Below, one piece after another: positions 42,101 through 58,369 of a stretch of DNA of 64,000 nucleotides (positions within the stretch are counted from its first letter, which is position 1; each line of letters starts with the position of its first letter). The stretch is from Propionicimonas sp. (lineage in GTDB: Bacteria > Actinomycetota > Actinomycetes > Propionibacteriales > Propionibacteriaceae), in contig JASGEM010000030.1 of assembly GCA_049841235.1 (NCBI GenBank), forward strand, positions 23,452 through 87,451, in the 5' to 3' direction. The position numbers and the translations under genes were made by a program. The notes beneath the pieces were generated by a model that saw only the letters and a list, made by a program, of their open reading frames with translations, was not told the DNA's origin and ran no database searches.

Positions 42101-42315
42101 TCCCGTCCGGTCAGGCGGGGGTGATGCTCGGCCTTTGCGCGGTGTTCCTCCCGCCTGAGGACCATACTGTCGCGACACTCGAACTCGAGGAGACGCTGGT
42201 GGCCGTGGCGTGGACGCCAGGTCCACATCGCCCGGGCCCGCCACATCGACGCGCCCCCCCGCGATTGGTGGTCCGCGGTGTTGGCGATCTCATCGCGGCC
42301 GAGCCGGCTTTCCGG

Positions 42316-42699
42316 CTAGCTACTCTGCTGCATCCTCACCGTGGTGGTCGTGCCCATGACGGTGAACTCGAAAGAGAGTTCTCCATTGGAATATGCGAAC
42401 TCCTTGTCGTCTGCTGTCGACCCTAGGAGGGAGCCGTTCAGAGCTTCCTTATCGGCGACGGACGTGAATGTGGGTGACTGAGAATGATCGAAGGTTCCCT
42501 TCCAGTAGAGCATCTTCGCTCCGTCGGAAACGATTTCGACCACGATCTCGTCTGTGGAAATGTCCGCTTCGAACTGGGACGGCGTGTCGCCGACGCTCGT
42601 CCAGGTTCCCGTCATGTCGACGGGTTCGGCTACGGGCGCGCTGCATCCCATCAGGACCAGCAGCGGGAGCGCCAGGGCGGCGAGCATCTTCTTGAACAT
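42316..42699 (-). CDS. Small lipoprotein, unknown function (low-GC islet)
   Basis: Lipobox in MFKKMLAALALPLLVLMGC. 127 aa. Hand-counted GC is 48-60% per 60 nt across 42361-42540. Confidence 0.6.
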   Translation of the reverse strand: MFKKMLAALALPLLVLMGCSAPVAEPVDMTGTWTSVGDTPSQFEADISTDEIVVEIVSDGAKMLYWKGTFDHSQSPTFTSVADKEALNGSLLGSTADDKEFAYSNGELSFEFTVMGTTTTVRMQQSS

Positions 42700-42781
42700 G
42701 GGTGGACCTTTCTAGGCAAGGTTGGTCGAAACTGGTGGTTGTCGGATTTGCTTTCGCCGAAGTGCTTCTTGATCGACTTCT

Positions 42782-43141
42782 CTACTCGTATCGAATCGAC
42801 CCGACGGGTGGCGGTAGTCCGTCCTGCCACACCCGCGCAAAGACGTCGGCGACCAGGGGCCAGATGCGTCGGACGCCCTCATCGACGGAGTGGATGAGAG
42901 GGGCCGCTGATCCGAGGAGGACGAAGTCGTGAGGGATCGTGCGGCCAGCCACGTCCTTCCGGTCCAGAGGATCGGGGAACCGCAGCGCCAGGCGTCCGCC
43001 GGTGAGCCTGCAGACCGTGTCCCGGTCCTCCAGACCGGCGAACGCCTGCTCGTAGCTTGCCAGCGGGTCGGCCAAGCCTCCGTCGAGAAGGAAACGGAAC
43101 CCCCAGGAACGGCCGCGTGTCGCCCAGATCAGGTTCACCAT
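42782..43141 (-). CDS. 119-aa protein of unknown function, translationally coupled to the GTPase-like gene
   Basis: Its ATG at 43141 overlaps the upstream stop by 7 nt (ATGGTGA). It reads MVNLIWATRGRSWGFRFLLDGGLADPLASYEQAF. No motif recognised. Confidence 0.6.
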   Translation of the reverse strand: MVNLIWATRGRSWGFRFLLDGGLADPLASYEQAFAGLEDRDTVCRLTGGRLALRFPDPLDRKDVAGRTIPHDFVLLGSAAPLIHSVDEGVRRIWPLVADVFARVWQDGLPPPVGSIRYE

Positions 43142-44304
43142 GGGTTCTTGACGAGGAGATGGTTCGCCACACCCTCATCGAGGTCGAGCCGGAGCTTGGT
43201 GAGGATGGCCGTGAGGTAGTCCTTGTCTTGCAGCGCCTGCTGGTGAATCTCCGCCAGCTTCGACCTTCCGAGCTGGACGAGCTCCGCCAGTGCCGGCATC
43301 GCCAGCGGACCGAGGATGCGTCCGACCTTCGGTACCTTGACAAGCAATTTCGTGGTCGCTTTCGCACCTACGCCCGTCAGCACCGTCGCCAGCACTTCCG
43401 CGTGGTCGACCAGTCCGCCCAGCACCTTGAGCGGGATGTTGAACGTGTCGGCCCATTGCGCGACTCGCTCCAACGGGAGCATGGAGGCCACCGGCAGGAT
43501 GAGGTCGACGCCCACTCGCTCGCTGACCGTGATCCTGTCGGGCTCGAACTTCGCCGAGGACAGGAGGAGGAAGTCTTCACCGAGCGAGAGTGCCTCGGGC
43601 ACCTGGACGAACCCCTTGAGCGTCTCCTGCAGTGCTGCGACATCGCCGGCTGCCTTCTCCACCACGAGATCCTGAAACCCCTGGACGTCAAGACCGGGGT
43701 GCAGATCGGCTTTGGAGAGCGCCAGAACCCAGATGCGCGGGAACTCGGCAAGGGGCTCGCCGTCAGTCAGGATGTCGTCCTTGAGCCGCTCCAGCCCGTC
43801 CCCGATGCTACTGAGCAGGTACTTGAGGTACTTCTCCTCCTCGCCTACGTGATCGATCAGCTTCTGACCGTCGATCAGGATGAGGGCGACGTCGGACTTC
43901 ATCAGTTTCGTGAAGGTCGCGACCCGCCGCGCGGCTTCCTGCTCGCTGCTGGGATCCTCCTCGAACCACTCACCCGGGTAGTCATGCCAGACCAGCCGCA
44001 GCGCGCTGAACGGCTGCCCCTTGACGCTCTTGGTGCCGTCCCCGCTGTTCGGCTTCACAGTGAAGGCATAGCTGGTCGGCTTGAACGTGGTGGGTCGGGG
44101 AGCCTGTGACGCGTTCTTCATCCTGAGGTAGTTCTGGTGCAGCCGGTTGCCCTGCCCCGTATCTGCGGCAATCAGGCTATACAGACTCTTGCTGCGGAAG
44201 GAGGGCTCCCGGGTGGCGCCGTAGAAGGACGAGAGGAGTACGGTCTTGCCGCTGCCGCTGGCACCGAACACAGCCAGGTTCTGTTCTCTCACCTTCATGG
44301 CCAT
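43135..44304 (-). CDS. Septin-like (TRAFAC-class) P-loop GTPase-like protein with a novel helical C-terminal half
   Basis: Motif positions are in 392-aa ORF numbering: Walker A GASGSGKT (aa 17-24), VWHDYPGE (DxxG, aa 111-114) and LALSKAD (septin-type xKxD G4, aa 200-203). The start is probably ATG 44304, after AGGTGG; alternatives are GTG 44313 and ATG 44298. Confidence 0.75.
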   Translation of the reverse strand: MAMKVREQNLAVFGASGSGKTVLLSSFYGATREPSFRSKSLYSLIAADTGQGNRLHQNYLRMKNASQAPRPTTFKPTSYAFTVKPNSGDGTKSVKGQPFSALRLVWHDYPGEWFEEDPSSEQEAARRVATFTKLMKSDVALILIDGQKLIDHVGEEEKYLKYLLSSIGDGLERLKDDILTDGEPLAEFPRIWVLALSKADLHPGLDVQGFQDLVVEKAAGDVAALQETLKGFVQVPEALSLGEDFLLLSSAKFEPDRITVSERVGVDLILPVASMLPLERVAQWADTFNIPLKVLGGLVDHAEVLATVLTGVGAKATTKLLVKVPKVGRILGPLAMPALAELVQLGRSKLAEIHQQALQDKDYLTAILTKLRLDLDEGVANHLLVKNPW

Positions 44305-44435
44305 GCGCGCCACCTGAGCTTTCGTACCGTCCGGCTCATATCGGTCTTCCTTCTTTGTCGACGCGTCGGTGCGGCATTTGAGGTTGGAACGTGAGGAAAC
44401 GGAGGAGATGGTCTCCGCCAGCCCCCGAATGGCGA

Positions 44436-44470
44436 ATGTGACTCATAGTCCGTGGACTCATTGTCAGCAT
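44436..44470. promoter_or_regulatory. Double C-box operator of a restriction-modification-type controller protein
   Basis: The sequence is ATGT GACTCATAGTC CGTG GACTCATTGTC AGCAT. Box 1 (44440-44450) is a perfect GACT-N3-AGTC palindrome. Box 2 (44455-44465) matches 3 of 4 arm positions. The spacer is the 4-bp CGTG. The site ends 18 nt before the C-gene ATG. Confidence 0.65.
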
Positions 44471-44487
44471 AGCGGAACGGTGGGGTC

Positions 44488-44742
44488 ATGCCCCTCCCGT
44501 CGCCGCGCATCGCCTTTGGTACGCGGCTACGCGAACTGCGCAGGGGAAAGGGCTGGTCGCAGGAAGAGCTTGCCCATCGCGCCGATCTCGACCGAACCTA
44601 CGTCAGCGGCGTCGAGCGAGGAGTCAGGAATCCGACCCTCGACGTGATCACGAGATTCGCCACCACCCTCAACGTCGAGGTCGCGGATCTCTTCCCGCGC
44701 GCCGACGGTGGATCAGAAGGCCCCGCCAACCCTTCCCGGTGA
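44488..44742 (+). CDS. XRE-family HTH protein of the R-M controller (C-protein) type
   Basis: 84 aa. FGTRLRELRRGKGWSQEELAHRADLDRTYVSGVERGVRNPTLDVITRFATTL carries the LDRTY(I/V)SG(I/V)ER..RNPT signature I associate with C proteins. It lies directly behind the C-box pair. Confidence 0.8.
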   Translation: MPLPSPRIAFGTRLRELRRGKGWSQEELAHRADLDRTYVSGVERGVRNPTLDVITRFATTLNVEVADLFPRADGGSEGPANPSR

Positions 44743-44764
44743 CCTGATGGAGACCTGCGGGAGG

Positions 44765-47092
44765 TCAGCGCGGCAGTAGGTCAAGGACTGCGGCGGCGAT
44801 CGAATCGGCGTCGATCTCGTGGTACCGGTAGACGCTGGCGAGGTCGCCGGACTGGCCGAAGCGGGTGACCCCAAGGTGCGTGCTCGGCACCCGCTGGACG
44901 CCCGCGAGGAATGACAGCGCGTGCGGGTGCCCGTCCAGGACGGTGACCAGCGGAGCCTTGCGCTCCTCGGGCAGCAGGGTGCGCAGCACCCACTCCCCGT
45001 CGGGTCGGACCTCTTCGACCCGACGATGCCGCGCCTGCAGTGCGGAGAAGAGCAGCCCGGGGCTGGTGATGCACAGCACCTCCACTTCAGCGCCGAGGCT
45101 GGTGAGCTGGTCAGCTGCCGCGAGGGCCTCCGGCACTACCGCACCCATCGCGGCGATCACCGCGTCCGGTCGCTCCACCGGACGCAGCCGGTAGCCGCCG
45201 GCGACCGCCTGCCGCCTGCGCAGTTCGCGTGCTTCGGGAGCCGTGGGGAGATCCGCGAGCAGCTGGTCGACCGGCCGGGTGGACAACCGCAGATAGCTGG
45301 ACGTGCCTGAGGCACGCCCCAGGCCGCGGATGCACTCCAGCAGTACCCACTCGGTGTCGACCACGAAGGCCGGTTCGTAGGCGATCACGCCGGGCTGCTC
45401 GAGGCCGATCGACGGCGTGACGATCGACTGGTGCGCGCCGCCCTCGGGCGCGAGACTGACCCCCGAGGGCGTGCCCACGAGGATGGACTGTCCGCCGGCA
45501 TAGACCCCGAACGACCATGGTTCCAGCGCCCGTCCCACGAACGGGTCGTAGACGACGCCGATCGGTATCAGCGCCTCGCCCCACCGGCTCCAGGTGGCGC
45601 CGAGTTCGCCGAGCAGGCCGACCAGGTTGGTTTCGGCGATCCCGAGCTCGATGTGTTGGCCGGAGGGACGTTCCCGCCAGTGAAGGATCGTCTCGGGATC
45701 GTCCTCGAACCAGCCGGAACGCTCGGTCGGCGCCCATACCCCGACCTTGTTGACCCAGCCACCGAGGTTCGTGCTCGAGCTCACGTCGGGGCTGACCGTG
45801 ACGACCCGCCCGCCGATCTCGGGCGCCGACCGGGCAAGATCCAGCAGGACGCGGCCCAGTGCGCTCTGGGTGGTCGCCCGGCCACGCGGGGACCAGCCGA
45901 AGTCGCTCGGCGGAGAGAAGCCCGCAGCGGCCCGGGTCTCCGGTCGGGAGAGCCGCTGGGCGGTCTCGCGGCAGAGCTTCTCCTCCGCGCTGTCCTTCGG
46001 GAAGCCGGCGAAGGGCCGGTCGCGATCGACGCCGAGCCGGCCGGCGAGGTCCTCGAGTTGCTCGGGGGTCAACAGTGCCGAATGGTTCTGGGGATGTCCT
46101 TCGCTGGCGAGTTGGTGACCCTTCACCGTGTAGGCGACGATCACGGTCGGACGGGTGTCGTCGATCTGATCGAAGGCGTCCAGGAGCGTCGCCGGATCGT
46201 GACCGCCGAGATCGCGCAACGCCGACCACAGCTGGTCGTCGCCGACCGGGGCGATCACCTCGCGCAATCCGGGGTGCGCCGGGTCCGCGAGGCGACTGCG
46301 CAGTTCCTCCGGGCGGCAGCGCAGGAGTCGTTGGTACTCCGGATTGCCCATCTGCTCGATCCGGTCCCGCAGCGCTTCGCCTCCGGGAAGGGCGAACAGG
46401 GAGCGCAGCTCGCTGCCGTACTTGGCCTGGATGACCTGCCAGCCGGCGGCTTCGAACATCTGCTGAACCCGTGCCGCGCTGCCCGAGGCAAGGACGCGGT
46501 CGAGCGACTGCCGGTTGAGATCCACGATCCAGACGACTTCGCCGAGTTCGCGGACGAGCGGGTCGCTCACGGCCTCCCAGACCGCGCCCTCATCGAGCTC
46601 GGCGTCTCCGACGAGGGAGTACTGGCGACCTCGGCCGGGAGTGCCACCGTGGTCGGCGACGAAGCGCCGCGCCAGGGTGCCCCACAGGGGCGCGGTCGCC
46701 CCGATCCCGACCGATCCGGTCGAGTAGTCCACCACCCCCCGGTCCTTGGTCCGGCTGGGGTAGCTCTGCAGCCCTCCGAAGGATCGCAGCGTGGTCAGGT
46801 CCGCCTCCTCGAGTTGCCCGAGCAGGTAGTTGATGGCGTGCAGCACCGGGGAGGCGTGCGGCTTGACCGACACCCGGTCCTCCGGCTCGAGCCGGTCGAA
46901 CCACAGGCAGGTCATGATCGTGGTCATCGAGGCGCTCGACGCCTGATGGCCACCGACCTTGAGCCCGCTCGGGTCTCGGCGGACCCGATTGGCGTGGTCG
47001 ACCATGGCGGTCGCGAGCCAGAGCACCCGTCGTTCGACGGATCGCAGCAGGCTCTCGCGATCGGTGAGCACATCGGTGGCCGGAAGGCTCAT
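44765..47092 (-). CDS. AceE-like homodimeric 2-oxoacid dehydrogenase E1 / transketolase-superfamily TPP enzyme
   Basis: 775 aa. TPP motif LVGDAELDEGAVWEA..VVWIVDLNRQSLD. The N-terminal KVGGHQASSASMTTIM resembles AceE GGHIAS. The ATG overlaps the upstream stop (ATGA). Confidence 0.8.
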   Translation of the reverse strand: MSLPATDVLTDRESLLRSVERRVLWLATAMVDHANRVRRDPSGLKVGGHQASSASMTTIMTCLWFDRLEPEDRVSVKPHASPVLHAINYLLGQLEEADLTTLRSFGGLQSYPSRTKDRGVVDYSTGSVGIGATAPLWGTLARRFVADHGGTPGRGRQYSLVGDAELDEGAVWEAVSDPLVRELGEVVWIVDLNRQSLDRVLASGSAARVQQMFEAAGWQVIQAKYGSELRSLFALPGGEALRDRIEQMGNPEYQRLLRCRPEELRSRLADPAHPGLREVIAPVGDDQLWSALRDLGGHDPATLLDAFDQIDDTRPTVIVAYTVKGHQLASEGHPQNHSALLTPEQLEDLAGRLGVDRDRPFAGFPKDSAEEKLCRETAQRLSRPETRAAAGFSPPSDFGWSPRGRATTQSALGRVLLDLARSAPEIGGRVVTVSPDVSSSTNLGGWVNKVGVWAPTERSGWFEDDPETILHWRERPSGQHIELGIAETNLVGLLGELGATWSRWGEALIPIGVVYDPFVGRALEPWSFGVYAGGQSILVGTPSGVSLAPEGGAHQSIVTPSIGLEQPGVIAYEPAFVVDTEWVLLECIRGLGRASGTSSYLRLSTRPVDQLLADLPTAPEARELRRRQAVAGGYRLRPVERPDAVIAAMGAVVPEALAAADQLTSLGAEVEVLCITSPGLLFSALQARHRRVEEVRPDGEWVLRTLLPEERKAPLVTVLDGHPHALSFLAGVQRVPSTHLGVTRFGQSGDLASVYRYHEIDADSIAAAVLDLLPR

Positions 47093-49098
47093 GGTGTCCT
47101 CCTTGGACGCTCGGGCGTGGGCGGGCGAGTGCCACCGGAACGGCTGGACGTGAGCCGGGCCAGCACCGACTCGAGTGCGGCACAGCAGCCCGCCGGGTGG
47201 TCGGCGAGCTCGGCCGGACGCGATTCCAGGAGGCGGATCAGATCGGGGACATCGGCGATCTCGAGCAACCCGTGCCGGTAGGCCATCGGGGTGGTCTCGC
47301 GTGGGCTGGGCACGAGAAGGTCTTCGAGGCTCCGCAGTCCCTCGACGACCACCCCGGCCACCCGGTCGTCGAGCGTTGCCGCCAGCAGGGCCACCAGACC
47401 GAAGGCGCCGGCCCCGGCCAGGATGATGCTCCCCTTGTCGAGTTGCTGGGCCGACGAGTACCGGGCCGAGAGATAGTCCACCAGCCGGCCCACGTCCCCG
47501 ACCCGCTGGCTCAGCAGGTCGCGGTCGAGCATCCAGGCCGCGGTCGCGATCTCGAACTCGGAGGCGTCGGACTCGCCGGTTCCCCGCAGGTCAGGTAGCA
47601 GCACGGCCCACCCGCGTTCACGTGCCAGCGCGGTGGCGGGCAGGTCCAGCGCCGCCTGCTTTCCGCCCTCGTCCAGGATGACGACGATCGGAGCGAGCGC
47701 GTCCGTCCAGTTCTCCGGCAGCAGCAGGAGCGCGTCGAGCACGATCCCCGGCTCGGAGTCGAATTCGAGGTGCTGCGCGAAGCCACCCTCGATCGGGAGA
47801 TGCCGGCGCACCCGGACGGGTGGTGGCCGGTCCTGCGGATCCAGTCCGAGGAAGGCGCGAAGCGACCCTGCGTCCGCGGGGGGCCGGGTCGTCCGCAGGG
47901 CGGCCGCTCGTTGCCGGGCAAGCTCGACCAGGGGCAGGTTGGCGTCCACCGGGCTGGGCAGGCAGGTGCCGGACGAGGGGCGGGGGGACATGTCCTGGGG
48001 CCGGCGTGCCGAGCCCAGGTTGTGCGGGTTCGGCCATTGCGGGTCGAAGTCCGGCCTCCCGTCGGGAAGGGTGGTCGCCGCGTGACCGGCGAGTTGGCGG
48101 ACGAGGTGGCCGGCGACGACCTCGCGCATCGCGGCGGAGGCGAAGCCGTGCCCGCCGGGAACCTCGACGTAGGCGAAAGAGAGGTCCTGCTCGCCGAGGA
48201 GCTCCCGGACCTCCGTGGCGACCTCGCGGGCACCGGCCAGGGGGAACGGCGGATCGTCGGTCGCATTGGCCACCAGGAGCTGCCGTGGGGCGACACAGGC
48301 CAGGATCTCGCCCATCGTGCCGATCGCGCAGAGCCGGGGAACCTGGTTGCACAGGTCGACCCAGCCGTCCCAACCGGTTCCGAACGCGGCGTCGCCGAGC
48401 TGGCCGAGGTGGGTGTTCACGATCGACGAGATCGCTGCGACCCCGATCCGTGGGTCGAGCACGGCGGCGAAGATCGAGGAGAACCCGCCGCCGGAGGCCC
48501 CCACCACCCCGAGACGGGAGGGGTCGACCTCGGGCAGGCCCTCCAGAATGCCGAGCGCCGTCCGGGTCTCGGCGACCATCAGGCCGAGAGTGGTGAACCC
48601 GGTCAGCACCGGCGCCAGTTGTCCGTGCTGGTGCCAGCCGACCCTCCGCTCACCCTGGCCCACCGTGTCGTAGCAGAGCACGGCGATGCCGTCGCGGACC
48701 AGGCGGAGATTCATGAGCTGCAGCGGCGCGGCGAGCTTGCCGTCCTCCATCCAGTGCCCGGGCGGGTGCACCACCGCCGGGTGCGGGCCGGCGCCGTCCG
48801 GAAGATACAGCAGCGCCGGGACCGGGAGCCCCGGTGCGGTCTCGAAGACGAGCTTCCGAATCCGGTAGCCCGGGCCCTCCACCTCATCGAGCCAGGTGCG
48901 TGCCTCGGCCGACGGGATGCGGTCGGTACCGAGCGAGCGGATGAGTGCCTCCCGGATCCGTTCCGGCTCGGGCAATTCGCCCCGCGCCCGAGCCTCGCGC
49001 TGCCGCCGGGCCAGCAGGCTGGCCTGATCGAGGACGAAGTCCGGCAGCATCGACCCGCGCGCGGGTGGCCGGAGCAACTGCTCGAGACGCCTCACCAC
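47089..49098 (-). CDS. Tandem alpha/beta-hydrolase-fold protein (N-terminal esterase-like half with GASGG elbow; C-terminal half lacks a Ser)
   Basis: The GTG at 49098 is preceded by GAGGGAGAA; an alternative ATG is at 49050. Half 1 reads PAVVHPPGHW..VGASGGGFSSIF. Half 2 reads PIVVILDEGG..LLPDLRGTGES..IILAGAGAFGLVA. The Arg/Pro-rich 137 codons upstream in the tracked ORF were rejected. Confidence 0.65.
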   Translation of the reverse strand: MVRRLEQLLRPPARGSMLPDFVLDQASLLARRQREARARGELPEPERIREALIRSLGTDRIPSAEARTWLDEVEGPGYRIRKLVFETAPGLPVPALLYLPDGAGPHPAVVHPPGHWMEDGKLAAPLQLMNLRLVRDGIAVLCYDTVGQGERRVGWHQHGQLAPVLTGFTTLGLMVAETRTALGILEGLPEVDPSRLGVVGASGGGFSSIFAAVLDPRIGVAAISSIVNTHLGQLGDAAFGTGWDGWVDLCNQVPRLCAIGTMGEILACVAPRQLLVANATDDPPFPLAGAREVATEVRELLGEQDLSFAYVEVPGGHGFASAAMREVVAGHLVRQLAGHAATTLPDGRPDFDPQWPNPHNLGSARRPQDMSPRPSSGTCLPSPVDANLPLVELARQRAAALRTTRPPADAGSLRAFLGLDPQDRPPPVRVRRHLPIEGGFAQHLEFDSEPGIVLDALLLLPENWTDALAPIVVILDEGGKQAALDLPATALARERGWAVLLPDLRGTGESDASEFEIATAAWMLDRDLLSQRVGDVGRLVDYLSARYSSAQQLDKGSIILAGAGAFGLVALLAATLDDRVAGVVVEGLRSLEDLLVPSPRETTPMAYRHGLLEIADVPDLIRLLESRPAELADHPAGCCAALESVLARLTSSRSGGTRPPTPERPRRTP

Positions 49099-49132
49099 GG
49101 CTTTCTCCCTCGCGCGAACGTAACCGGTGTCC

Positions 49133-49942
49133 TCATGTGCCGCCGTCCACCCAGTCGGCGAGCAGGCCGGCGAACTCCGGCGCCCGCTCGATCTGCGCCC
49201 AGTGCCCAACATCCTCCCAGACGACCGAACGGCTGTGCGGATCGCCGTACAATCTCCGCTCCCAGTCGGCCCCGGCGGGCGTCGTGTGCACCGCGAGCAC
49301 CGGTTGCACCCGTCGCACCAGATAGGCCTCCGCACCCGCTCGGCTGCAGATCTCGTCGGGTGCCTCGAACAGGCCGGCGAGGCAGGCCTCGAGCACCGCC
49401 GGATCGCAGCCCAGCGCCCGCCGGGCAAGCCACTCGACCAACCACTCGGGGGTGGTGGGGCCGGCCCAGGACCGGACCGCCTCCGCCGCCGCGACCGGGC
49501 CGCGGGCACGGACGGCCCTCAGCAGTTCGAGCCGTTCGGGCCATTCCTGCTCCGAGACGCCGTACGAGGGGTCGACCACGACCACCGCTGAGACGAGTTC
49601 GGGACGCTCTACCGCCAGCGCGGAGACGACGACGGCGCCCAGCGAGTGGCCGACGGCGACGACCCCGGTGAGGCCGAGCCCGTCGAGCAGAACGGCAAGA
49701 TCCCCCGCGAGCTCGCGCGGGGCGTAGCCGGCAGGAGTCGCCGTGGAGTGGCCGAAACCGCGCAGATCGGGAACGATCAGACGGCGCCCCGAGAGCGCCG
49801 GCATCTGCCACGACCAGTCGCTGCCGTCCGCGGACCAGCCGTGGACCAGCAGCATCGCCGGCTCGCCCGATCCCCGTTCGGTGACGAAAAGGCTCGCGTC
49901 CCCCACGTCCATCCGGCTGATCCGGTCAACCACGGCGCTCAC
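49133..49942 (-). CDS. Alpha/beta hydrolase
   Basis: Reads PAMLLVHGWSADGSDWSWQMPAL..VPDLRGFGHS..AVGHSLGAVV (GHSLG elbow). The GTG at 49942 overlaps the permease stop (GTGA); an alternative ATG is at 49912. Confidence 0.8.
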   Translation of the reverse strand: MSAVVDRISRMDVGDASLFVTERGSGEPAMLLVHGWSADGSDWSWQMPALSGRRLIVPDLRGFGHSTATPAGYAPRELAGDLAVLLDGLGLTGVVAVGHSLGAVVVSALAVERPELVSAVVVVDPSYGVSEQEWPERLELLRAVRARGPVAAAEAVRSWAGPTTPEWLVEWLARRALGCDPAVLEACLAGLFEAPDEICSRAGAEAYLVRRVQPVLAVHTTPAGADWERRLYGDPHSRSVVWEDVGHWAQIERAPEFAGLLADWVDGGT

Positions 49943-50769
49943 TTGCCGATCCCCGCAGTGAGACCCCGGACGAAGAAGCGCTGGCCGAAGATGTAGAGCA
50001 GCACGATGGGGACGACCGAGATGAACGCGCCCGCCATGACCAGCGGCTGCTGGGCCAGGTAGCGCCCCTGGAAGGTGGCGAGGCCGGCCATGAGCGTGCG
50101 GGCATCCCCCTGCTGCAGGAAGACCAACGCGATCAGCAGCTCGTTCCAGGCATAGATCAGGTTGACCAGGACCAGCGTGAACAACGCCGGTCCGGAGAGC
50201 GGGGTGACGATCCGGGTGAGGGTGCTGAGCGGGCCGAGGCCGTCCATCTTCGCCGCCTCGATCAGTTCCATGGGGACGCTCCGCAGGAAGCTGGTGAGGA
50301 AGAACACCGAGAACGGCAGGAACAGCCCGACGTAGATGACGATCACCGAAGGCAGGCGATTGATCAGCCCGATGTCCACCATGAGGACGAACAGCGGGGT
50401 CAGCAGGGTGACCGGCGGCACCACCATGAGCGCGAGGTTCCCGTTGGCGAACAGTGAGCGGCCGGGGAACCGCGCGAAGACCACCGCGTAGCTGGCCAGC
50501 AGGGCGATCGCTGTCGTCGCGATCGAGGCCGCAACGGAAACCACAATGCTGTTCAGCAGCCAGGTCAGCACCGGCATGGACTCGATGAGCTGGACGAAGC
50601 TCTGCACCGTCGGCGGCACCGGCAGGCCGAGCGGATCCTGCTGGTATTGCGGGTCGGTCTTCAAAGAGGTCTGGACGATGAACCAGATCGGGTACAGACA
50701 GACCAGGCATACCGCGACGAGGAAGGCATGCTTGACGACCGAGCCGGCGCGCGGACCGCGGCTGTTCAC
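49939..50769 (-). CDS. Carbohydrate ABC transporter permease
   Basis: EAA loop PMELIEAAKMDGLGPLSTLTRIVTP. The GTG at 50769 overlaps the upstream stop (GTGA). Confidence 0.85.
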   Translation of the reverse strand: MNSRGPRAGSVVKHAFLVAVCLVCLYPIWFIVQTSLKTDPQYQQDPLGLPVPPTVQSFVQLIESMPVLTWLLNSIVVSVAASIATTAIALLASYAVVFARFPGRSLFANGNLALMVVPPVTLLTPLFVLMVDIGLINRLPSVIVIYVGLFLPFSVFFLTSFLRSVPMELIEAAKMDGLGPLSTLTRIVTPLSGPALFTLVLVNLIYAWNELLIALVFLQQGDARTLMAGLATFQGRYLAQQPLVMAGAFISVVPIVLLYIFGQRFFVRGLTAGIGK

Positions 50770-51659
50770 GACTCCCCCTGGGCGCGGCGCAGCCGTGAGT
50801 AGATGACGATGAGCACGCCGGAGAGGGTGAGCAGCACGACCGCGGCCGCCGAACTCAGCCCTGGCGAGTTGTACTCGAAGGCGTAGCGCCACACGTACAG
50901 ATCCATCACGCTCGATGCGGTGCCCGGGCCGCCGCGAGAGATGACGTAGACGTAGGGAAAGGTCCACGCCAGCACCTGGATCGCCTGAAGCACGAGGAAG
51001 AACTCGATGGTGCCCCGGATCGCCGGGACGAGGACCAGACGGTTGCGTTGCCAGCGCGTCGCACCGTCCACCATCGCTGCCTCGCTCAGCTCGGCAGGGA
51101 CCGCGTCGAGCGCGGCGGCGAAGATGACCACCCCGAAGCCGAGCTGGGCCCAGACGAGCACACCACCGATGGTGGGCAGGACCCACGCCGGGTCTCCGAG
51201 CCAGTCCATGGCGAGAGCATCGAGACCCACTCCACGCAACAGCGAGTTCACGATGCCTCGCTGCTGTAGCAGGAAGGAGAAGCTGAGCCCGATCGCGGTT
51301 GCCGGAATCAGGTAGGGCAGGAACACCAGGATGCGGTACAGCCGCCAGCCACGAGTGCCCTCGTAGAGCAGGAGTGCGACGACCAGCGCGACCGTCGTCG
51401 TCACCGGCACCGCGAGCAGCAGCTTCAGGCTGTTGGTCAGCGAGGTGACGAAGACCGGGTCGGCCAGCAGCGCCTCGAAGTTGCGCAGCCCACCGAACTG
51501 CATGCGACCCATCGAGCCGGTGTAGAGGCTGTTGCGGATCACGGAAACCAGCGGGAACACGAACACCAACCCGAGGACGGCCACCGCCGGGAGGATGAAG
51601 AGAAACGGCCAGACCCCGCCGTCACGCGGCGGGGTCACGCCGGCTACCCCTCGGCCCAC
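50766..51659 (-). CDS. Carbohydrate ABC transporter permease
   Basis: EAA loop PAELSEAAMVDGATRWQRNRLVLVP. The start is at 51659, or at GTG 51638, 6 nt after the SBP stop. Confidence 0.85.
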   Translation of the reverse strand: MGRGVAGVTPPRDGGVWPFLFILPAVAVLGLVFVFPLVSVIRNSLYTGSMGRMQFGGLRNFEALLADPVFVTSLTNSLKLLLAVPVTTTVALVVALLLYEGTRGWRLYRILVFLPYLIPATAIGLSFSFLLQQRGIVNSLLRGVGLDALAMDWLGDPAWVLPTIGGVLVWAQLGFGVVIFAAALDAVPAELSEAAMVDGATRWQRNRLVLVPAIRGTIEFFLVLQAIQVLAWTFPYVYVISRGGPGTASSVMDLYVWRYAFEYNSPGLSSAAAVVLLTLSGVLIVIYSRLRRAQGES

Positions 51660-53026
51660 GTCAGATAGGCCTCGAACTCCGCGGGCTGCTGGGTCTGCCA
51701 GGCCTCGATGACCCGCTGAATCTCAGCGGCCGCCTCGTCGGGCGTGAGGGAGCCGGCGATCAGTGCCTGCCCGACGGACCGTAGCCCCTGGGAATCCACC
51801 TGAGGCGGTGCGTAGTTCTGGGCCCAAAGCTGTAGCGGCAGGGTGTTGAGCTCGTAGAGGTCGCGCTTGAGCCCGTCCTCGACGAGGCTGGAGTCGAACC
51901 GCTTGTCCGCCGGGAAGGAGCCGGTCGTCTCGTACCAGCTGACCAGGTTCTCGGGGTCGTGAAGCCAGGCGAGGAAGGTGGCGGCCTGCACCTTCTGCTC
52001 CGACCACGATGTCACGAAGGCGGAGATCGACTGGGTCGCGGTGTAGGCCTGGGCGAGCGCGCCGTCCCCTGCGGTGGGCGTCTTCTGGACACCGAGGGAG
52101 CTGCCCAGACCCGAGTTCATCCACTCGACCACGTTGCCGTCCGTCGCCCACGTCATCGCAGCCTGACCCTGGGCGAACTGCTGCCAGCCTTCGAGAGCGT
52201 CGATGGAGGAGATGTCACTGTTGAGGTAGCCCTTCTCCACGAGTTCTGCGAGCAGTTCCAGGTAGCGCGAGTACTTGGGTTCGGTGAACTGGGCCTTGCC
52301 GGAGTAGACGGCCTGCAGTTCCTGGACGGAATCCAGCGTCTGCGTGCCGACCATGCCCTGGAACCAGCCTCCGAAGGCACCGTCCTTGGCACCGAAGACG
52401 ATCGGGGTGATCCCGGCCGCTTTGAGCTTCTCCGACGCCGCCAGCAGCTCGTCCCAGGTCTGGGGGCCTTGGTCGGTGGGCAGGCCGGCTTGAGCGAACA
52501 GGTCCTTGTTCCAGACGAAGGGTGCGCCGAGAAGGTACAGCGGCATGGCCCAGACCTTGCCGTCGTAGGTGTTCTCGGCGGTGTTGAGCCAGTTGGCCAT
52601 CTCCGCTTCGGGGACGAGCCCGGTGAGCGGCTCGACATAGCCCCGCCACACCGGGGTGAGCACGGGCAGAGTGGCCCATTGCATCGCGATGTCAGGGCCG
52701 GAGCGGGATTGTCCCGCGGTCTCGAAGGCCCCCTGGAGCGTCTCGCTCGCCTGCGGCACCAACTCGATCGAAATGTCCGGATGCAGCTGCTCGTATCGGG
52801 TGATCGCCTCCTCCATCCACGCGGTTGCACCCGGGACGTCAGGTTCCGCCCAGAACCAGAAAGTCAACGTGCCGGCGTACGCTTCGTCCGTTGTCGGGCC
52901 GGCCGACGGCTGTCCCCCCGGTGTGGTTGCCGAGGGTGCCGTCGATCCCGAACAGGCCGCCGCGGTGAGCAGGAGTGCCATCCCCCCGACTCCGGCGAGC
53001 AGCTTCCTCAGAGTGCGAGCTTTCAT
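51644..53026 (-). CDS. ABC transporter sugar-binding lipoprotein
   Basis: Begins MKARTLRKLLAGVGGMALLLTAAAC (lipobox). The ATG at 53026 is preceded by GAGGAGAA. Confidence 0.9.
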   Translation of the reverse strand: MKARTLRKLLAGVGGMALLLTAAACSGSTAPSATTPGGQPSAGPTTDEAYAGTLTFWFWAEPDVPGATAWMEEAITRYEQLHPDISIELVPQASETLQGAFETAGQSRSGPDIAMQWATLPVLTPVWRGYVEPLTGLVPEAEMANWLNTAENTYDGKVWAMPLYLLGAPFVWNKDLFAQAGLPTDQGPQTWDELLAASEKLKAAGITPIVFGAKDGAFGGWFQGMVGTQTLDSVQELQAVYSGKAQFTEPKYSRYLELLAELVEKGYLNSDISSIDALEGWQQFAQGQAAMTWATDGNVVEWMNSGLGSSLGVQKTPTAGDGALAQAYTATQSISAFVTSWSEQKVQAATFLAWLHDPENLVSWYETTGSFPADKRFDSSLVEDGLKRDLYELNTLPLQLWAQNYAPPQVDSQGLRSVGQALIAGSLTPDEAAAEIQRVIEAWQTQQPAEFEAYLTWAEG

Positions 53027-53133
53027 CCGTGTTCTCCTCGATCTCTTGTCTGCGGGCCGGGCCCGGACGCCTCGGAACCGGGCAGTGGACGTCGTTGACA
53101 CTATCCGACGGGTGGACACCATGGCAAGATGCA

Positions 53134-53150
53134 TGCAGCAATATACTGCA
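53134..53150. promoter_or_regulatory. Candidate LacI operator (TGCAGCA-type)
   Basis: TGCAGCAATATACTGCA, with a further CTGCA at 53155-53159. It lies in the divergent region between the SBP gene and lacI. Confidence 0.35.
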
Positions 53151-53271
53151 AGAACTGCAACATGTGCCTGGCTATTCACGAGTGTCCGTGGATGGAGCAG
53201 GCCGTCGCGAGAATCCGGGAGCGGCTCGCTGCGATATCGTGGCGCTGCCGCAAGAACGCTCTGGAGGCAAT

Positions 53272-54279
53272 GTGAAGGTCACTCTGTCCGACGTCGCCCG
53301 TCACCTGAGGATCTCGCCGTCGACCGTCTCCCGCGCGATCTCCGCACCTGACCGGGTGAATGCCACCACCAGGGAGCGGGTGCTCGCAGCGGTCGCGGAA
53401 CTGGGCTATGTCCATCCGGGCGCGCCGCGGCCGTCCGGACGGGCCTCGCACATGATCGGGCTCATCGTCCCCGACATCGTCAATCCCTTCTTCCCGCCGA
53501 TCATCAAAGCGGTGCAGGCTCGTGCCGCGGCGCGGGGATGGACGGTGCTGATCGCCGACATCGACGAACACCCTGCCGACGAACTGCGGCGTGCCAAGCA
53601 ACTGCTGGATCAGGTGGACGGCCTGATCGTGGTGAGCGCCCGCACGCCTCCCGACCAGTTCCACAAGCTGGTGGCAATGCAGCCGATCGTCCTGGTCAAC
53701 CGGGAATGGGACGGGGTCGCCAGCGTGAACATCGAGAACGGCGCCGGCATCGAGGACGCGGTGGAGCACCTCGTCGCGTTGGGTCACCGACACCTGTGCT
53801 ACCTGAACGGCCCGCGGCGGTCCTGGTCGAATCAGCAGCGGCAGAGAGCGGTCCGGGAGGCGTGTGAGCGTGCCGGTGTCGACCTGGTGGAGTTCGGGCC
53901 CTTCGAGCCGCAGATCCAGGCCGGCATGCGCGCGGCAGACCTGCTGTGCGCATCTGGGGCGACAGCGGTGATCGCCTACGACGACCTGCTCGCCCTGGGT
54001 GTGATGACCCGCCTCAACGAGCGTGGCATTCAGGTGGGGTCCGGGATCAGCGTGATCGGCATCGACGACAGCCCGATGTCGGGCATGGTGCATCCCTCCC
54101 TGACCTCCATCCAGATTCCCGGTAGCGAGGCCGGGATGACCGCGGTGGATGCGCTGCTCGACCTGGTGGCCGCCCAGAGCGAAGGCCGGGACCTGCAACC
54201 GTTGCTGGTGAGCTCGCTGCTCGAGACCCGACTGGTGGTGCGCACCTCGACCGCGCCGCCCCCGGCCGAGCGCCTTTAG
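53272..54279 (+). CDS. LacI family transcriptional regulator
   Basis: The GTG at 53272 follows GGAGG. HTH VTLSDVARHLRISPSTVSRAISAPDRV. PBP-type sugar-binding core. Confidence 0.9.
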   Translation: MKVTLSDVARHLRISPSTVSRAISAPDRVNATTRERVLAAVAELGYVHPGAPRPSGRASHMIGLIVPDIVNPFFPPIIKAVQARAAARGWTVLIADIDEHPADELRRAKQLLDQVDGLIVVSARTPPDQFHKLVAMQPIVLVNREWDGVASVNIENGAGIEDAVEHLVALGHRHLCYLNGPRRSWSNQQRQRAVREACERAGVDLVEFGPFEPQIQAGMRAADLLCASGATAVIAYDDLLALGVMTRLNERGIQVGSGISVIGIDDSPMSGMVHPSLTSIQIPGSEAGMTAVDALLDLVAAQSEGRDLQPLLVSSLLETRLVVRTSTAPPPAERL

Positions 54280-54289
54280 CGACGCCTCG

Positions 54290-54315
54290 GCAGCAAGTGT
54301 GCTGCATGTGCAGCA
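54290..54315. promoter_or_regulatory. Candidate LacI operator (overlapping palindromes GCAGCA-AGTG-TGCTGCA-TG-TGCAGCA)
   Basis: Two overlapping inverted repeats are built from the same TGCAGCA/TGCTGCA heptamer seen at 53134. They lie upstream of the nagB-like gene. A further 7-2-7 palindrome GAGTGAC-TC-GTCACTC is at 54339-54354. Confidence 0.4.
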
Positions 54316-54420
54316 AAGGCATGTTAGGGTGAGCGCAAGAGTGACTCGTCACTCAGCAGACCGGCGTAGGTCCCGCGACCCCGCGGCCGCGGTGACGGCA
54401 CCCAACCAGGAGAAGCTCCT

Positions 54421-55182
54421 ATGCATGCAACCCGCAGCCAGGATCTCGAGATCACGATCCTCGACAGCAACGCAGAACTGGGCCGGCGGGCGGCGGCGGA
54501 GTTCGCCTCGATCGTCCGCGGTGAACTGGCGGAGCGTCGCGAGATCGCCGTCATCCTGGCTACCGGTAACTCCCAGTTCAGCTTCACCGAGGCCCTTCGC
54601 GACCGGACTGACATCGAGTGGGGCCGGATCACGGTGCTCCACATGGACGAGTACCTCGGCATGGACGCCGGGCATCCGGCGAGCTTCCGTCGCTGGATGC
54701 AGGAACGGGTGGTCGAACCCTTCCGCCCAGCGCGGTTCGAGGGCATCGACGGCGACGCCGATTCCGTCGAGGCGGAGCTCCGGCGCTACAGCACCCTGCT
54801 CCGGGAACTGGAGCCGGCGATCTGCGTCATGGGCATCGGTGAGAACGGACATCTGGCGTTCAACGATCCGCCTGCCGACTTCGACACTCCGGAGCTGATT
54901 CGAGTGGTGGAGATGGACGAGATCTCCCGCCGGCAACAGGTCGGCGAGGGCCACTTCCCGTCCCTGGCCGAGACGCCGACCCACGCTCTCACCCTAACCA
55001 TCCCGGCGCTGCTCGCCCCGCGTCACGTCCTGGTGCTGACTCCTGAAGCCAGGAAGGCCGAGGCAGTCAGGCGGGCGCTCCAGGGAGAGATCGGCGCCGA
55101 CTGCCCGGCGTCCATCCTGCGCACCCAGCCGCAGGCCAAGCTCTTCCTGGATCGGGAGTCCGCCGCCCTGCTTGACCACTGA
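54421..55182 (+). CDS. nagB: Glucosamine-6-phosphate deaminase / 6-phosphogluconolactonase family protein
   Basis: Reads ILATGNSQFSF..VLHMDEYLG..VMGIGENGHLAFNDP. The ATG is preceded by AGGAGAAG. Confidence 0.8.
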   Translation: MHATRSQDLEITILDSNAELGRRAAAEFASIVRGELAERREIAVILATGNSQFSFTEALRDRTDIEWGRITVLHMDEYLGMDAGHPASFRRWMQERVVEPFRPARFEGIDGDADSVEAELRRYSTLLRELEPAICVMGIGENGHLAFNDPPADFDTPELIRVVEMDEISRRQQVGEGHFPSLAETPTHALTLTIPALLAPRHVLVLTPEARKAEAVRRALQGEIGADCPASILRTQPQAKLFLDRESAALLDH

Positions 55183-55189
55183 GCCTGGA

Positions 55190-57103
55190 TCAGGCTCGGA
55201 GTGCCGACGCGTCCGAGGGGGCGGTGACCGGCGGAGTGAAGGCACCCTCGATCGAACGGGCGGCACCCTTGTCGGCGGACAGCGCCAGCGCGGCATAGAT
55301 CTTCAGCGCCTGGGAGACCTCGCGCTGCCGGGTCCTCGGCTTCCAGCCGAGCTGGTTCTGCCGCAGCCGCCGCTCCTCCAGGGTGGCTTCGTCCACCAGG
55401 ACGTCGATCGACCGGTTCGGGATGGAGATCTGGATCAGGTCGCCGTCCTCGATCAGGCCGATCGCGCCGCCGGAGGCAGCCTCCGGCGAGATGTGGCCCA
55501 GCGACAGCCCCGACGAGCCGCCGGAGAACCGTCCGTCGGTGATCAGCGCGCACTTCGGCCCGAGGCCGGTGCCCTTCAGGTAGGAGGTCGGGTACAGCAT
55601 CTCCTGCATGCCCGGCCCGCCCTTGGGGCCCTCGTAGCGCACCACCACGACGTCACCGGCCCGCACCTTCTTGCTCAGGACGGCCTCGACGGCCTCCTCC
55701 TGCGACTCGGTGACGATGGCCGGACCGGTGAAGTCCCACTGCGCCTCGGGGACGCCGGCGGTCTTCACGATCGCGCCGTCAGGGGCGATGTTGCCCTTCA
55801 GGACGGCCAGCCCGCCGTCAGCGGTGTAGGCGTGCTCGACCGAGCGAATGCAGCCGTGCTCGGCGTCGGTGTCCAGATCGGCCCAGCGGTTGTTGGTGCT
55901 GAACGCCTCGGTGGTGCGGACGCCGCCGGGCGCGGCGTACCACAGGTCCATCGCCTCGGGAGATGCCTTGCCGCCGCGCAGGTCCCAGGCGTCCAGCCAT
56001 TCGGCCAGCGAAGGGGAGTGGACGGCGTGCACCGACTCGTCCAGCAGGCCGCCGCGGCGGAGTTCGCCGAGGATCGCGGGCATCCCGCCGGCCCGATGCA
56101 CATCCTCCATGTAGAACTTGGTCGAGTTCGGCGCCACCTTGCTCAGGCAGGGGGTCACCCGCGACAGGGCGTCGATGTCGTCCAGGGTGAAGTCGACGCC
56201 GGCCTCGACGGCGGCGGCCAGGATGTGCAGCACGGTGTTGGTCGAGCCGCCCATCGCGATGTCCAGCCGCATGGCGTTGCTGAACGCCGCCTTGGTGGCG
56301 ATCGAGCGCGGCAGCACCGACTCGTCGTCGCCGTGGTAGTACCGGTTGGCCAACTCGACTGCCAACCGTCCCGCCTCCAGGAACAGGCCCTTGCGCGCCA
56401 GCGCGGTCGCCAGCGTCGAGCCGTTGCCGGGCAGCGAAAGCCCGAGCGCTTCGGTGAGGCAGTTCATCGAGTTGGCGGTGAACATGCCCGAACAGGAGCC
56501 ACAGGTCGGGCAGGCGTTCTGCTCGATCGCCGCGATCTGCTCGTCCGTGACCGACTCGTCGACCGCCTTCACCATGGCGTCGACCAGGTCGAGCCGCTCC
56601 GAGCCGCCCTCGTCGGGCGCGCCGGAGACCACCCGGGTGCCGAGGATCCGTCCGGCCTCCATCGGGCCGCCGGAGACGAAGACGGTGGGGATGTTCAGCC
56701 GCAGCGCGGCCAGCAGCATGCCGGGGGTGATCTTGTCGCAGTTCGAGATGCAGACCAGCGCATCCGCGCAGTGCGCGTTGACCATGTACTCCACCGAGTC
56801 GGCGATGATCTCGCGGCTGGGCAGCGAGTAGAGCATGCCGGCGTGTCCCATCGCGATGCCGTCGTCGACCGCGATGGTGTTGAACTCGCGGCCGATCGCG
56901 CCGGCCTCGTGGATGGCGCCGGCGACCAGCTGGCCCATGTCCTTGAGGTGGACGTGGCCGGGCACGAACTGGGTGAAGGAGTTCGCGATCGCGATGATCG
57001 GCTTGCCGAAATCGGAGTCGGTCACGCCGGTGGCACGCCAGAGCGCACGGGCTCCGGCCATGTTGCGGCCGTGGGTGGTGGTCCGGGATCGCAGGACGGG
57101 CAT
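55190..57103 (-). CDS. ilvD: Dihydroxy-acid dehydratase
   Basis: Reads [76 protein letters not shown]. The ATG at 57103 is preceded by AAGGAGAA. Confidence 0.95.
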
Positions 57104-57274
57104 CGTCGTTTCTCCTTCGCGAATGCCAAGACACCCAGGGTACTTCCCATCGCCTCCGGAGCCGGGCGAGGGCCGAGCAGCGGCCAGACCGGCCTCGCCC
57201 GAGGCGTCCGCCCGCCGCGGATCGAGCCGGGGTTCGGCGTTGTCGGCCCGGGGTCGGGTGGGTATCGTCCCGGC

Positions 57275-58369
57275 ATGGAACCGCACCGGCTGAGCCGGCA
57301 GGACGCCCGGCGGCTGGCCGTCCGCGCGCAGTTGCTGGACGCCGTCCGGCCGTCCCTGGTAGCCGAGGTGGTCGAGGAACTCGCCGTCCTCAACATCGAC
57401 CCGACCAACGCGATCGCGCCCAGCGAGGATCACATCCTGTGGTCCCGTCTCGGGGCCGGCTACGAGCACGGCCTGCTGCAGCAGGCGGTGGAGGACGACC
57501 GGACCGTGTTCGAGTACGACGGCATGTATCGCCCGGTGCTGGACCTGCCGCTGTACCAGGCCCTGATGCGGCAGCCGCTGCGCTACGCCGAGACCCGGCA
57601 GTGGCTGGACGACAACGCCGGCTTCCGTCGCGACATCCTCGCCCGGCTCCGTGACGAAGGGCCGCTGCGCACCGGCGAGTTCCCCGACACCGCGCGACGT
57701 TCCTGGGGATCGACGGGGTGGACGAACAACCGCAATGTCACCCAGATGCTTGAGATCCTGGCGCGGCTGGGCGAGATCGCGATCGCGGGCCGCACCGGAC
57801 GGGAGCGCTGGTGGGATCTCGCCGAGCGCGTCTACCCGCCGGGCCTGCCGGAACTCGAGAGTGCCGAGGCGGAGCGGCAGCGGGATGCCCGGCGGCTGCA
57901 GTCGCTCGGCATCGCGCGGGCACAGCAGACCGCGGTGTCGATGGAGCCGATGGGCGTCGGTGGGACCGGCGAGCAGGCCGTGGTCGAGGACGTCCCGGGC
58001 ACCTGGCGGGTGGATCCGGTGGGACTGGCCGGTCTCGGGCTCCCCTTCGCCGGACGGACGGCGTTGTTGTCGCCCTTCGACCGGCTGGTCTTCGATCGGA
58101 CGCGAGCCCAGGCGCTGTTCGGCTACGAGTACATCCTGGAGATGTACAAGCCGGCGGCGAAGCGGCGCTGGGGTTACTTTGCGCTGCCGATCCTGCACGG
58201 CGACCAGCTGATCGGGAAGGTGGATGCCAAGGCCGACCGCAAGGCCGGGCTGCTGCGGGTGTTCGCCGTCCACCGCGACGTCGCGTGGGAGGACGAGGCG
58301 GTGGAAGGCGTCGACACCGAGCTCCGGGCTCTGGCCGACTGGCTCGGGCTGGAACTCGAACGGGACTGA
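57275..58369 (+). CDS. Winged-helix DNA glycosylase AlkZ/YcaQ-like (DUF1006) protein
   Basis: Begins [21 protein letters not shown] and continues ..WSRLG..TVFEY and ..[28 protein letters not shown]. It is the real C-terminal third of the 1065-aa tracked ORF. Confidence 0.8.

Follow-up and report, generated by a model that had tools for sequence, protein, structure and literature searches.

A predicted C-protein autoregulatory switch of the restriction-modification type at a Propionicimonas locus without recognisable restriction-modification genes

C proteins, the controllers of many restriction-modification (R-M) systems, serve as the textbook timing switch for a toxic gene. What does such a switch do at a locus where no gene of the restriction type is found? 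The question is raised by a 64,000-nucleotide (nt) stretch of DNA from Propionicimonas sp. (contig JASGEM010000030.1, positions 23,452 to 87,451; hereafter the window), in which a double C-box operator precedes the gene of an 84-amino-acid (aa) C-protein homologue. We consider it likely that the two form a self-limiting C autoregulatory switch belonging to a chromosomal clade without R-M genes, that its lipoprotein neighbour has been deleted in the window, and that the GTPase gene lying divergently beside it is unrelated to it. The elements of the proposed switch are the following, with negative numbers counted from the A of the ATG.

44436-44470, plus strand: 35-bp double C-box operator (OL and OR), matching the C.Esp1396I operator at 28/35 positions and the consensus at 15/16, with 93% identity across 7 contexts
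44436-44452, plus strand: OL, the promoter-distal half-operator, centre 44445 (-43), with T-G at 44437-38, GACT at 44440-43, CAT at 44444-46 and AGTC at 44447-50
44454-44470, plus strand: OR, the promoter-proximal half-operator, centre 44460 (-28), with GACT at 44455-58, CAT at 44459-61, TGTC at 44462-65 and C-A at 44468-69
44453-44458, plus strand: putative -35 hexamer TGGACT (-35 to -30), identical to the mapped ahdICR -35 element and invariant in 7 contexts
44476-44481, plus strand: putative weak -10 hexamer AACGGT (-12 to -7), behind a 17-bp spacer, with A at -11 and T at -7 invariant in 7 contexts
44488-44742, plus strand: 84-aa C-protein homologue with a single HTH_3 domain, predicted leaderless (Pfam HTH_3 3e-15, PADLOC Control_protein 5e-19, C.AhdI 4e-15)

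The site at 44436-44470 reads ATGTGACTCATAGTCCGTGGACTCATTGTCAGCAT, exactly as the initial annotation of this DNA had described it. It is composed of two 11-bp boxes, GACTCATAGTC and GACTCATTGTC, with CGTG between them, ATGT as the 5' flank and AGCAT as the 3' flank. The idealised C-box consensus is GACTnnnAGTCnnnnGACTnnnAGTC, and the single disagreement falls among its 16 specified bases. The native C.Esp1396I operator, ATGTGACTTATAGTCCGTGTGATTATAGTCAACAT, has been crystallised with two C dimers (PMC2504287), and the 28 identities to it were counted base by base. The next-best match to this operator in the window reaches 19/35, and the chance expectation for a match of at least 28/35, calculated from the base composition of the window, is 1.5e-8 per window. 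All the features highlighted in the crystal structure are kept, namely the T2-G3 and C33-A34 ends, the central G17-T18 and a pyrimidine-A-T centre in each half-site. The site is AT-rich, with a GC content of 46% versus 69% for the whole window.

The two half-sites are not equivalent. The GACT/AGTC inverted repeat is perfect in OL, and OR carries one mismatch to AGTC, which makes OR the weaker of the two; the 5' copy is nearer to consensus than its 3' counterpart, the same order as in known C-boxes. The half-site centres are separated by 15 bp, and OR overlaps the putative -35 element. Between the end of the operator and the ATG at 44488 there are 17 nt (44471-44487), one fewer than first reported. 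With the 28/35 match, the retained structural positions, the spacing of the centres and this gap, we assign the site to the C.PvuII/AhdI/Esp1396I class of operators, the class that the initial annotation had proposed for it. The double-box pattern occurs once in the window. Neither a second C-box nor an isolated half-operator turned up elsewhere in it; outside the operator, GACT-N3-WGTC is matched only at 27491, no more often than chance would allow.

A 10-bp perfect palindrome nearer the GTPase gene, CGACGCGTCG, had also been pointed out. It is indeed present at 44359-44368, but it is unremarkable. Perfect palindromes of 10 bp number 132 in the window, or roughly one every 485 bp, and the sequence reads CGACGCGCCG in the related locus L082 (an 89% relative) and is unconserved in the locus L084. 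We therefore rejected it as a second operator and attribute it to chance.

The product of the downstream gene was compared with solved structures and with profile collections. Its top matches in the PDB are C.AhdI (4e-15, 35/62 identical), C.BclI (5e-10) and C.Esp1396I (7e-9), with SinR, DdrO and other XRE proteins ranking lower. The best models in PADLOC are three 'Control_protein' profiles (top 5e-19), and the repressor and antitoxin families of NCBIfam (RstR, HipB-like, SlrR and others) all lie far below their cut-offs. We then mapped the residues named in the C.Esp1396I structure paper onto the HMMER alignment. The protein keeps 11 of the 12 DNA-contact and switch residues (R17, Q24, E25, R35, T36, Y37, S39, R43, R46, N47 and T49 of C.Esp1396I), so that the DNA-reading residues and the activation-repression pair are present as R36, T37, R47 and E26 in the numbering of the window protein. 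The sole difference is S52, replaced by Val53, at a position that the structure's authors described as variable. A generic XRE regulator, such as a phage Cro/CI-type repressor or a HipB-type antitoxin, was rejected because C proteins outrank these in both PDB and PADLOC searches; no toxin or phage gene adjoining the C gene was found in the window. Judged from its sequence, the 84-aa product is a C protein, which upholds the identity given to it in the initial annotation.

The predicted arrangement of promoter and operator is that expected of a C gene. The putative -35 hexamer TGGACT sits inside OR. In the putative -10 hexamer, the two invariant bases are A at -11 and T at -7, which are the two most important positions of a -10 element. 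Given the 17-bp spacer, transcription would begin with the A of the ATG, and by analogy the C gene at 44488-44742 would be leaderless. A gap of 17-18 nt between operator and ATG is the peak value and the signature of leaderless C genes, whether linked to R-M genes or not (Sorokin et al. 2009, NAR 37:441; PMC2632904). An intrinsic terminator was looked for between 44200 and 44850, and none was found.

We propose that the operator and the protein encoded 17 nt downstream of it would constitute a standard C-protein autoregulatory switch. The individual steps, drawn from homology to AhdI, PvuII and Esp1396I, are most likely as follows. A C dimer would first occupy OL, the better half-site, and the OL-bound dimer would activate the weak promoter formed by TGGACT and AACGGT, giving a leaderless mRNA from the A of the ATG. 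At a higher C concentration a second dimer would bind cooperatively to OR, and the overlap of OR with the -35 element would then turn transcription off. The conserved Glu26/Arg36 pair might mediate both the contact with the sigma factor and the contact between the dimers. As far as the sequence can tell, the switch would control its own gene only.

Is this arrangement maintained beyond a single genome? Some 40 protein clusters share 71-99% identity with the window C protein, and all the named ones come from Propionibacteriales-type metagenome-assembled genomes, the sources being Propionicimonas, Micropruina, Arachnia and Propionibacteriaceae. The C genes of the relatives lie in the following genomic contexts.

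L081: a twin with 99% C identity, in the same gene order as the window
L084/85: 81% C identity, with the GTPase module divergent and ilvD convergent
L086-88: 84% C identity, adjoining ilvD, without the GTPase
L089-92: 81% C identity, Micropruina, flanked by ilvBNC and a phosphate transporter
L213/214: 86% C identity, adjoining a PhdYeFM-PIN pair and ilvD
L215/216: 71% C identity, adjoining cytochrome c maturation genes
L217/218: 77% C identity, between hrpB and lepA
L219: 69% C identity, Agromyces silvae, on an integrative element that carries a serine recombinase

Seven contexts in Propionibacteriales-type genomes, along with one Agromyces mobile element, were aligned with the ATG as the anchor, and conservation was expressed as mean pairwise identity. 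The 35-bp box averages 93%, with a minimum of 83%. Identity falls to 71% in the 17-nt spacer and to 61% in the first ten codons, and the 60 bp preceding the box reach 26%, in effect the level of random sequence. The 35-bp site begins 52 nt before the ATG in all aligned relatives except L086-88. For the C gene itself, the ratio of nonsynonymous to synonymous substitution rates (dN/dS, Nei-Gojobori) is 0.09-0.19 at dS values of 0.4-0.9, and the gene is under purifying selection. The conservation of the box, a strong phylogenetic footprint, together with the dN/dS values excludes a locus in simple decay. L086-88 carry a 9-bp deletion ahead of the C gene (about 7958-8000) that takes away the right half of OR and brings the site closer to the ATG; this lineage may have lost the repression half-site with OL and the C gene intact.

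The location of the gene is chromosomal. Genes for ilvD, DUF1905 and PFK lie at 55-60 kb in the window, and L084 has the same genes beside its C gene, which indicates a syntenic chromosomal locus with local rearrangement. The region 44765-60253 has genes in common with L084 in another arrangement, a block of an esterase, an ABC transporter, LacI and glucosamine-6-P isomerase being on the opposite side in L084; the difference would point to an inversion or transposition bordered by the C-GTPase segment. A dip in GC content, to 0.58-0.65 at 42200-44700 against about 0.70 in the flanks, spans a 127-aa lipoprotein gene (42316-42699), a 119-aa gene, the GTPase gene and the C gene, and is consistent with acquired DNA.

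We next consider whether R-M genes accompany the switch. Beyond the stop codon of the C gene (44742), 22 nt intervene before the stop end (44765) of a gene that runs convergently and encodes a 775-aa transketolase/E1-like protein. Both this convergent neighbour and the lack of a co-transcribed R gene had been reported initially, and both hold: by Pfam, no R-M family is present in the neighbours of the C gene or in the 20 largest open reading frames (ORFs) of the window, whose matches are to sugar transporters, LacI regulators, glycosidases, MurJ, ilvD, PFK, peptidases and others. A motif screen found no ORF of the window that combines methyltransferase motifs I and IV, and Rfam gave no matches in the whole window. 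Outside the window, no restriction or methylase family was called within 7-8 kb in L081, L082, L084-92 and L213-219, about 11 related contexts in all, where the annotation consisted of precomputed Pfam hits; such hits are often missing for divergent restriction endonucleases and rarely for methyltransferases. An R-M pair next to the C gene is not seen in the related contexts sampled, just as the protein does not group with generic XRE regulators; the initial annotation had named both as findings that would refute its reading. The implication that a C-box without R-M genes is a rarity does not hold to the same degree. Among 169 new C homologues, only 23% lie within 3 kb of R-M genes and 77% do not, and the function of the non-R-M C proteins was left open (Sorokin et al. 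2009, PMC2632904).

The same class of box was searched for in metagenome contigs with the pattern TGTGACTNATNGTCCGTNGACT. At least 120 stretches were obtained, of which 80 were listed, with GC contents from 0.29 to 0.70. The site is directly upstream of a C homologue in 73 of the 80 listed, and at least two of the other seven are at contig ends; no convincing trans target without a C gene was found in high-GC DNA among the 80. By a crude first-start rule, a start codon follows at 17-18 nt in 35 of them. In 48 lower-GC loci, the co-directional downstream ORFs include those for Alw26I-, ScaI- and MjaI-type endonucleases, type I HsdR, an HNH protein and Vsr, and neighbouring ORFs gave methyltransferase matches (13 to C5-methylases, 3 to N6/N4 enzymes and 3 of Eco57I type). 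The nearest relatives with R-M-type cargo, about 48-58% identical to the window protein, are accompanied by an HNH endonuclease (L153), HsdR (L134) or Alw26I-type endonucleases (L109, L150 and L170). Other cargo is not of the R-M type: SLFN-g3/DUF2075-type helicases of about 650 aa occur in three loci (L094 and two more among 32 aligned downstream ORFs), and an Abi_2 protein in L141. These helicases and Abi_2 are candidate non-R-M defence genes under C control. None of the high-GC outgroup loci examined is R-M-linked.

If not R-M genes, what accompanies the C gene in its own clade? An unannotated gene lies divergent from C in six neighbourhoods, and its products form one family of secreted lipoproteins of about 170-200 aa. 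The genes, and the point in the window where the corresponding one would have been lost, are as follows.

L082, 179-721, divergent from C: lipoprotein gene, 180 aa
L086, 7238-7843, divergent from C: lipoprotein gene, 201 aa
L089, 7333-7833, divergent from C: lipoprotein gene, 166 aa
L213, 6312-6830, divergent from C: lipoprotein gene, 172 aa
L215, 6365-6892, divergent from C: lipoprotein gene, 175 aa
L217, 6341-6883, divergent from C: lipoprotein gene, 180 aa
Window, 44395-44396, unstranded: junction of a putative deletion of about 680 bp, with loss of the divergent lipoprotein gene, from colinearity with L082; the direction follows from the pairing in 6 contexts

The proteins carry a lipobox (L-[TSA]-A-C) in their signal peptide, a tether rich in Pro, Ala and Thr, and a domain of about 110 aa, in which cysteines near the start (AEAC) and at the C-terminus (KLC) are conserved. 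The family comprises 16 clusters and has no Pfam domain; for several members, the contig has the same length as one that carries a C homologue, consistent with co-location. The AlphaFold model is a confident four-helix bundle (predicted local distance difference test score 80-95) behind a disordered N-terminal region, and a Foldseek search of it against the PDB gave generic helical bundles only, with a best E of 0.13. From the lipoprotein start codon to the edge of OL there are 56-118 bp, which places the lipoprotein promoter beside the operator or within its reach. In the 5' untranslated region a short hairpin stands just before the ribosome-binding site, with a sequence that differs by lineage (TGCTCC..GGAGCA or GCCCCG..CGGGGC).

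The closest comparison to the window is L082, whose GTPase is 89% identical to that of the window. There, C and the box are followed by the lipoprotein gene, the GTPase gene, the 119-aa gene and the 127-aa gene, in that order. The two L082 segments that flank the lipoprotein gene are colinear with the intergenic region of the window, where about 680 bp are absent. A similar difference is seen within Micropruina, where a stretch of about 965 bp that spans the lipoprotein gene is present in L089 and missing from L090/L091; the flanks are 99% identical, and the C gene and C-box are untouched. We read both as deletions because lipoprotein and C gene are paired in six contexts; by parsimony, the losses in the window and in Micropruina would be two independent events. 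The lipoprotein gene is the only recurrent neighbour of C in the clade, and one that has probably been deleted in the window.

In the window the switch now adjoins the divergent GTPase gene, which belongs to an unrelated module of two genes. The GTPase ORF at 43135-44313 (minus strand) encodes 392 aa, and the product is most likely 389 aa from the ATG at 44304; a structure model of it is of mixed quality. It matches DO-GTPase2 (Pfam PF19993) with E=1e-8, above the cut-off, and has more than 1800 homologues, mostly in Actinomycetota. We compared 80 fetched genomic loci encoding GTPase relatives (L001-L080). A homologue of the 119-aa ORF (42782-43141), for which no family match was obtained, is directly downstream of the GTPase gene in 72 of the 80 loci, and in none of the 80 does the GTPase gene adjoin a C homologue or double C-box. 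The nearest upstream genes are mutually unrelated, with 52 singletons among 60. The pairing in 72/80 loci and the absence of C and box from all of them indicate that the GTPase pair is self-contained and has no need of a C protein, and the GTPase was rejected as the cargo of the switch on these grounds. In the systems described for DO-GTPases, which have a proposed role in biological conflict (Kaur et al. 2020), the GTPase comes with a GAP1 protein of three domains and with effectors that vary; no GAP1 partner of such systems is present with the window GTPase.

The module of the GTPase and the overlapping 119-aa gene (42782-44313, minus strand) deserves a description of its own. The 72 of 80 genomes that contain it are mostly Actinomycetota, with a few Lentisphaerae and Desulfobacterota, the neighbourhoods are unrelated, and there is a weak PADLOC match to mad3; the pair may be an undescribed conflict or defence module. 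An upstream ORF (uORF) of 14 codons at 44295-44339 (minus strand), MSRTVRKLRWRAWP, is preceded by a strong Shine-Dalgarno sequence, GAAGGAAG. The TGA of the uORF (44295-44297) overlaps an in-frame ATG of the GTPase gene (44296-44298), just inside the likely start at 44304. The uORF pattern M-x-R-T...R-W..W also occurs in L082 and L084, and it was not found in the other GTPase loci.

With this evidence, the alternatives to a self-limiting switch can be weighed. The C switch could have been co-opted to control the divergent GTPase and 119-aa module, possibly a toxic conflict system, in parallel to the C proteins that gate toxic restriction enzymes. The two genes diverge across a 183-bp intergenic region in the window, L081 and L084/85, with their adjacency kept over a dS of about 0.7, the GTPase matches a family proposed for biological conflict, and elsewhere the same box class precedes a C gene followed by Abi_2 or SLFN-type helicase genes; whether non-R-M C proteins control other toxic genes was asked by Sorokin et al. 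(PMC2632904). We nevertheless regard this reading as doubtful. The module at other loci, with neither C nor box and with unrelated genes upstream, needs no such regulator, and the known cargo of C switches is co-directional with C and downstream of it, whereas the GTPase gene runs divergently and its ATG is 132 bp past OL. In L082 the 180-aa gene stands between the box and the GTPase gene, and the GTPase-proximal 100 bp or so are retained, which suggests that the GTPase has a promoter of its own; no second operator or other conserved block is common to the intergenic regions of the window and L084. An R-M system that recently lost its R and M genes would leave a protein and a box of the R-M controller class in DNA with GC below that of its flanks, just as observed here, and many orphan C genes have been proposed to be remnants of destroyed R-M systems (Sorokin et al., PMC2632904). 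A decaying relic is most improbable even so, as the 22 nt from the C stop to the convergent gene offer no room for a pseudogene, no R-M gene was called in the roughly 11 related contexts, both gene and box remain intact and under purifying selection in lineages that differ by dS 0.4-0.9, and the locus is syntenic with those of its relatives through ilvD, DUF1905 and PFK. A recent R-M relic is thus largely refuted, and an ancient R-M origin of the C gene is plausible.

Other readings give the C protein a role in trans, and one of them is compatible with the self-limiting switch that we prefer. A lone C gene might be kept as a host defence, in which the resident C protein prematurely fires the C-dependent restriction gene of an incoming R-M system with the same C-box and so kills or cures the cell (mutual exclusion). 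Pre-expressed C is known to block the establishment of a cognate R-M system, and related C proteins cross-complement and cause mutual exclusion (reviewed in PMC12707154); the same box class is common in diverse metagenomes, on at least 120 contigs, and is R-M-linked there through nearby restriction endonucleases and methyltransferases, and such a role would explain the strong selection on protein and box after the loss of the neighbour. It is, however, a candidate by analogy and in our view quite unlikely: none of the high-GC loci checked that have this box is R-M-linked, which gives no sign that matching R-M systems circulate in these hosts, and any fitness gain would come only indirectly when a transformed cell is killed. 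That selection is so strong after the neighbour was repeatedly lost does suggest a trans role more broadly. A restriction-type C switch might have been domesticated as a stand-alone host gene that acts in trans, either as a sentinel that fires incoming R-M systems (abortive exclusion) or on distant chromosomal targets. We hold this to be unlikely as well; if true, it would give a function to a large class of orphan C proteins.

Several points weigh against a self-limiting switch with a lost lipoprotein neighbour. A pure self-loop without output is unlikely under such purifying selection, and our explanation lacks a trans target or a role against incoming DNA. The binding, the transcription start and the logic of activation and repression are all carried over by homology. 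A scan of 44200-44850 found no sigma-70 consensus promoter; this is expected for C promoters, which are reported to have no recognisable -10 element and to need C for their activity (Sorokin et al. 2009, PMC2632904), yet it provides no positive evidence. The putative lipoprotein partnership is drawn from six contexts and the 16-cluster family, and L084, which is more distant than L082, also has no lipoprotein gene, whereas the closer L082 has one. The searches covered contigs, and further boxes, targets or R-M genes may lie at a distance in the same genome.

A self-limiting C switch in a clade that keeps no R-M genes nearby would make the locus a clean non-R-M case, with an operator and a protein the same in kind as those of bona fide R-M controllers and with an operator better conserved than its coding sequence. 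Strains with and without the lipoprotein gene make the clade a tractable system in which to learn what is controlled by a C switch outside R-M. There may be cultured relatives in Micropruina, Propionicimonas and similar genera. For annotation, the lesson is that a restriction system should not be presumed from a perfect C-box, nor regulation from adjacency to a defence-like GTPase.

Elsewhere in the window, a MurJ lipid II flippase of 1183 aa is fused to a weak protein-kinase-like domain (16594-20145, minus strand), and a 798-aa protein has a RyR domain (4297-6693, minus strand). The first-start rule used for ORFs inflates several genes; ilvD at 55190-58273, for instance, carries a spurious N-terminal extension of about 420 aa.

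How does the locus compare with known systems? The nearest solved protein is C.AhdI from Aeromonas hydrophila (PDB 1Y7Y), by the PDB match given above. The mapped -35 element of ahdICR is the same hexamer as in the window and lies inside the proximal half-site in both, and the operator centres are -44/-29 in AhdI and -43/-28 in the window, with 15-bp spacing in each. The AhdI C mRNA is leaderless, its start having been mapped to the first base of the ATG, and the same is predicted for the window. The two differ in that ahdIC is co-transcribed with ahdIR and faces a convergent methyltransferase operon, whereas the window C gene is without a co-transcribed gene and no R or M gene was found; Phe34 of C.AhdI corresponds to His30 in the window protein. 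C.Esp1396I (PDB 3CLC and related) resembles the window protein in its operator, including the TG/CA ends, the central GT and the pyrimidine-A-T centres, and in the 11 of 12 residues that include the Glu25/Arg35 switch. The window OR has a better box, GACT, than the TGATT of Esp1396I. C.Esp1396I controls both R and M and has a third site at the methyltransferase promoter, whereas no additional site was found in the window.

The closest counterpart as a class is the set of C homologues outside R-M systems, to which this locus belongs and which was already described by Sorokin et al. (2009), who predicted C-boxes for 201 C homologues (PMC2632904). Those homologues share with the window the double-box 35-bp motif, the gap of 17-18 nt and the absence of an R-M gene within 3 kb. 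Most of them stand beside phage or mobile-element genes and were read as remnants, whereas the clade of the window is chromosomal, partly syntenic and under purifying selection and, unlike them, has a recurrent and repeatedly lost lipoprotein neighbour. What is new here is the chromosomal residence and synteny of the clade, the quantitative footprint of its operator, and the lipoprotein partner with its recurrent loss.

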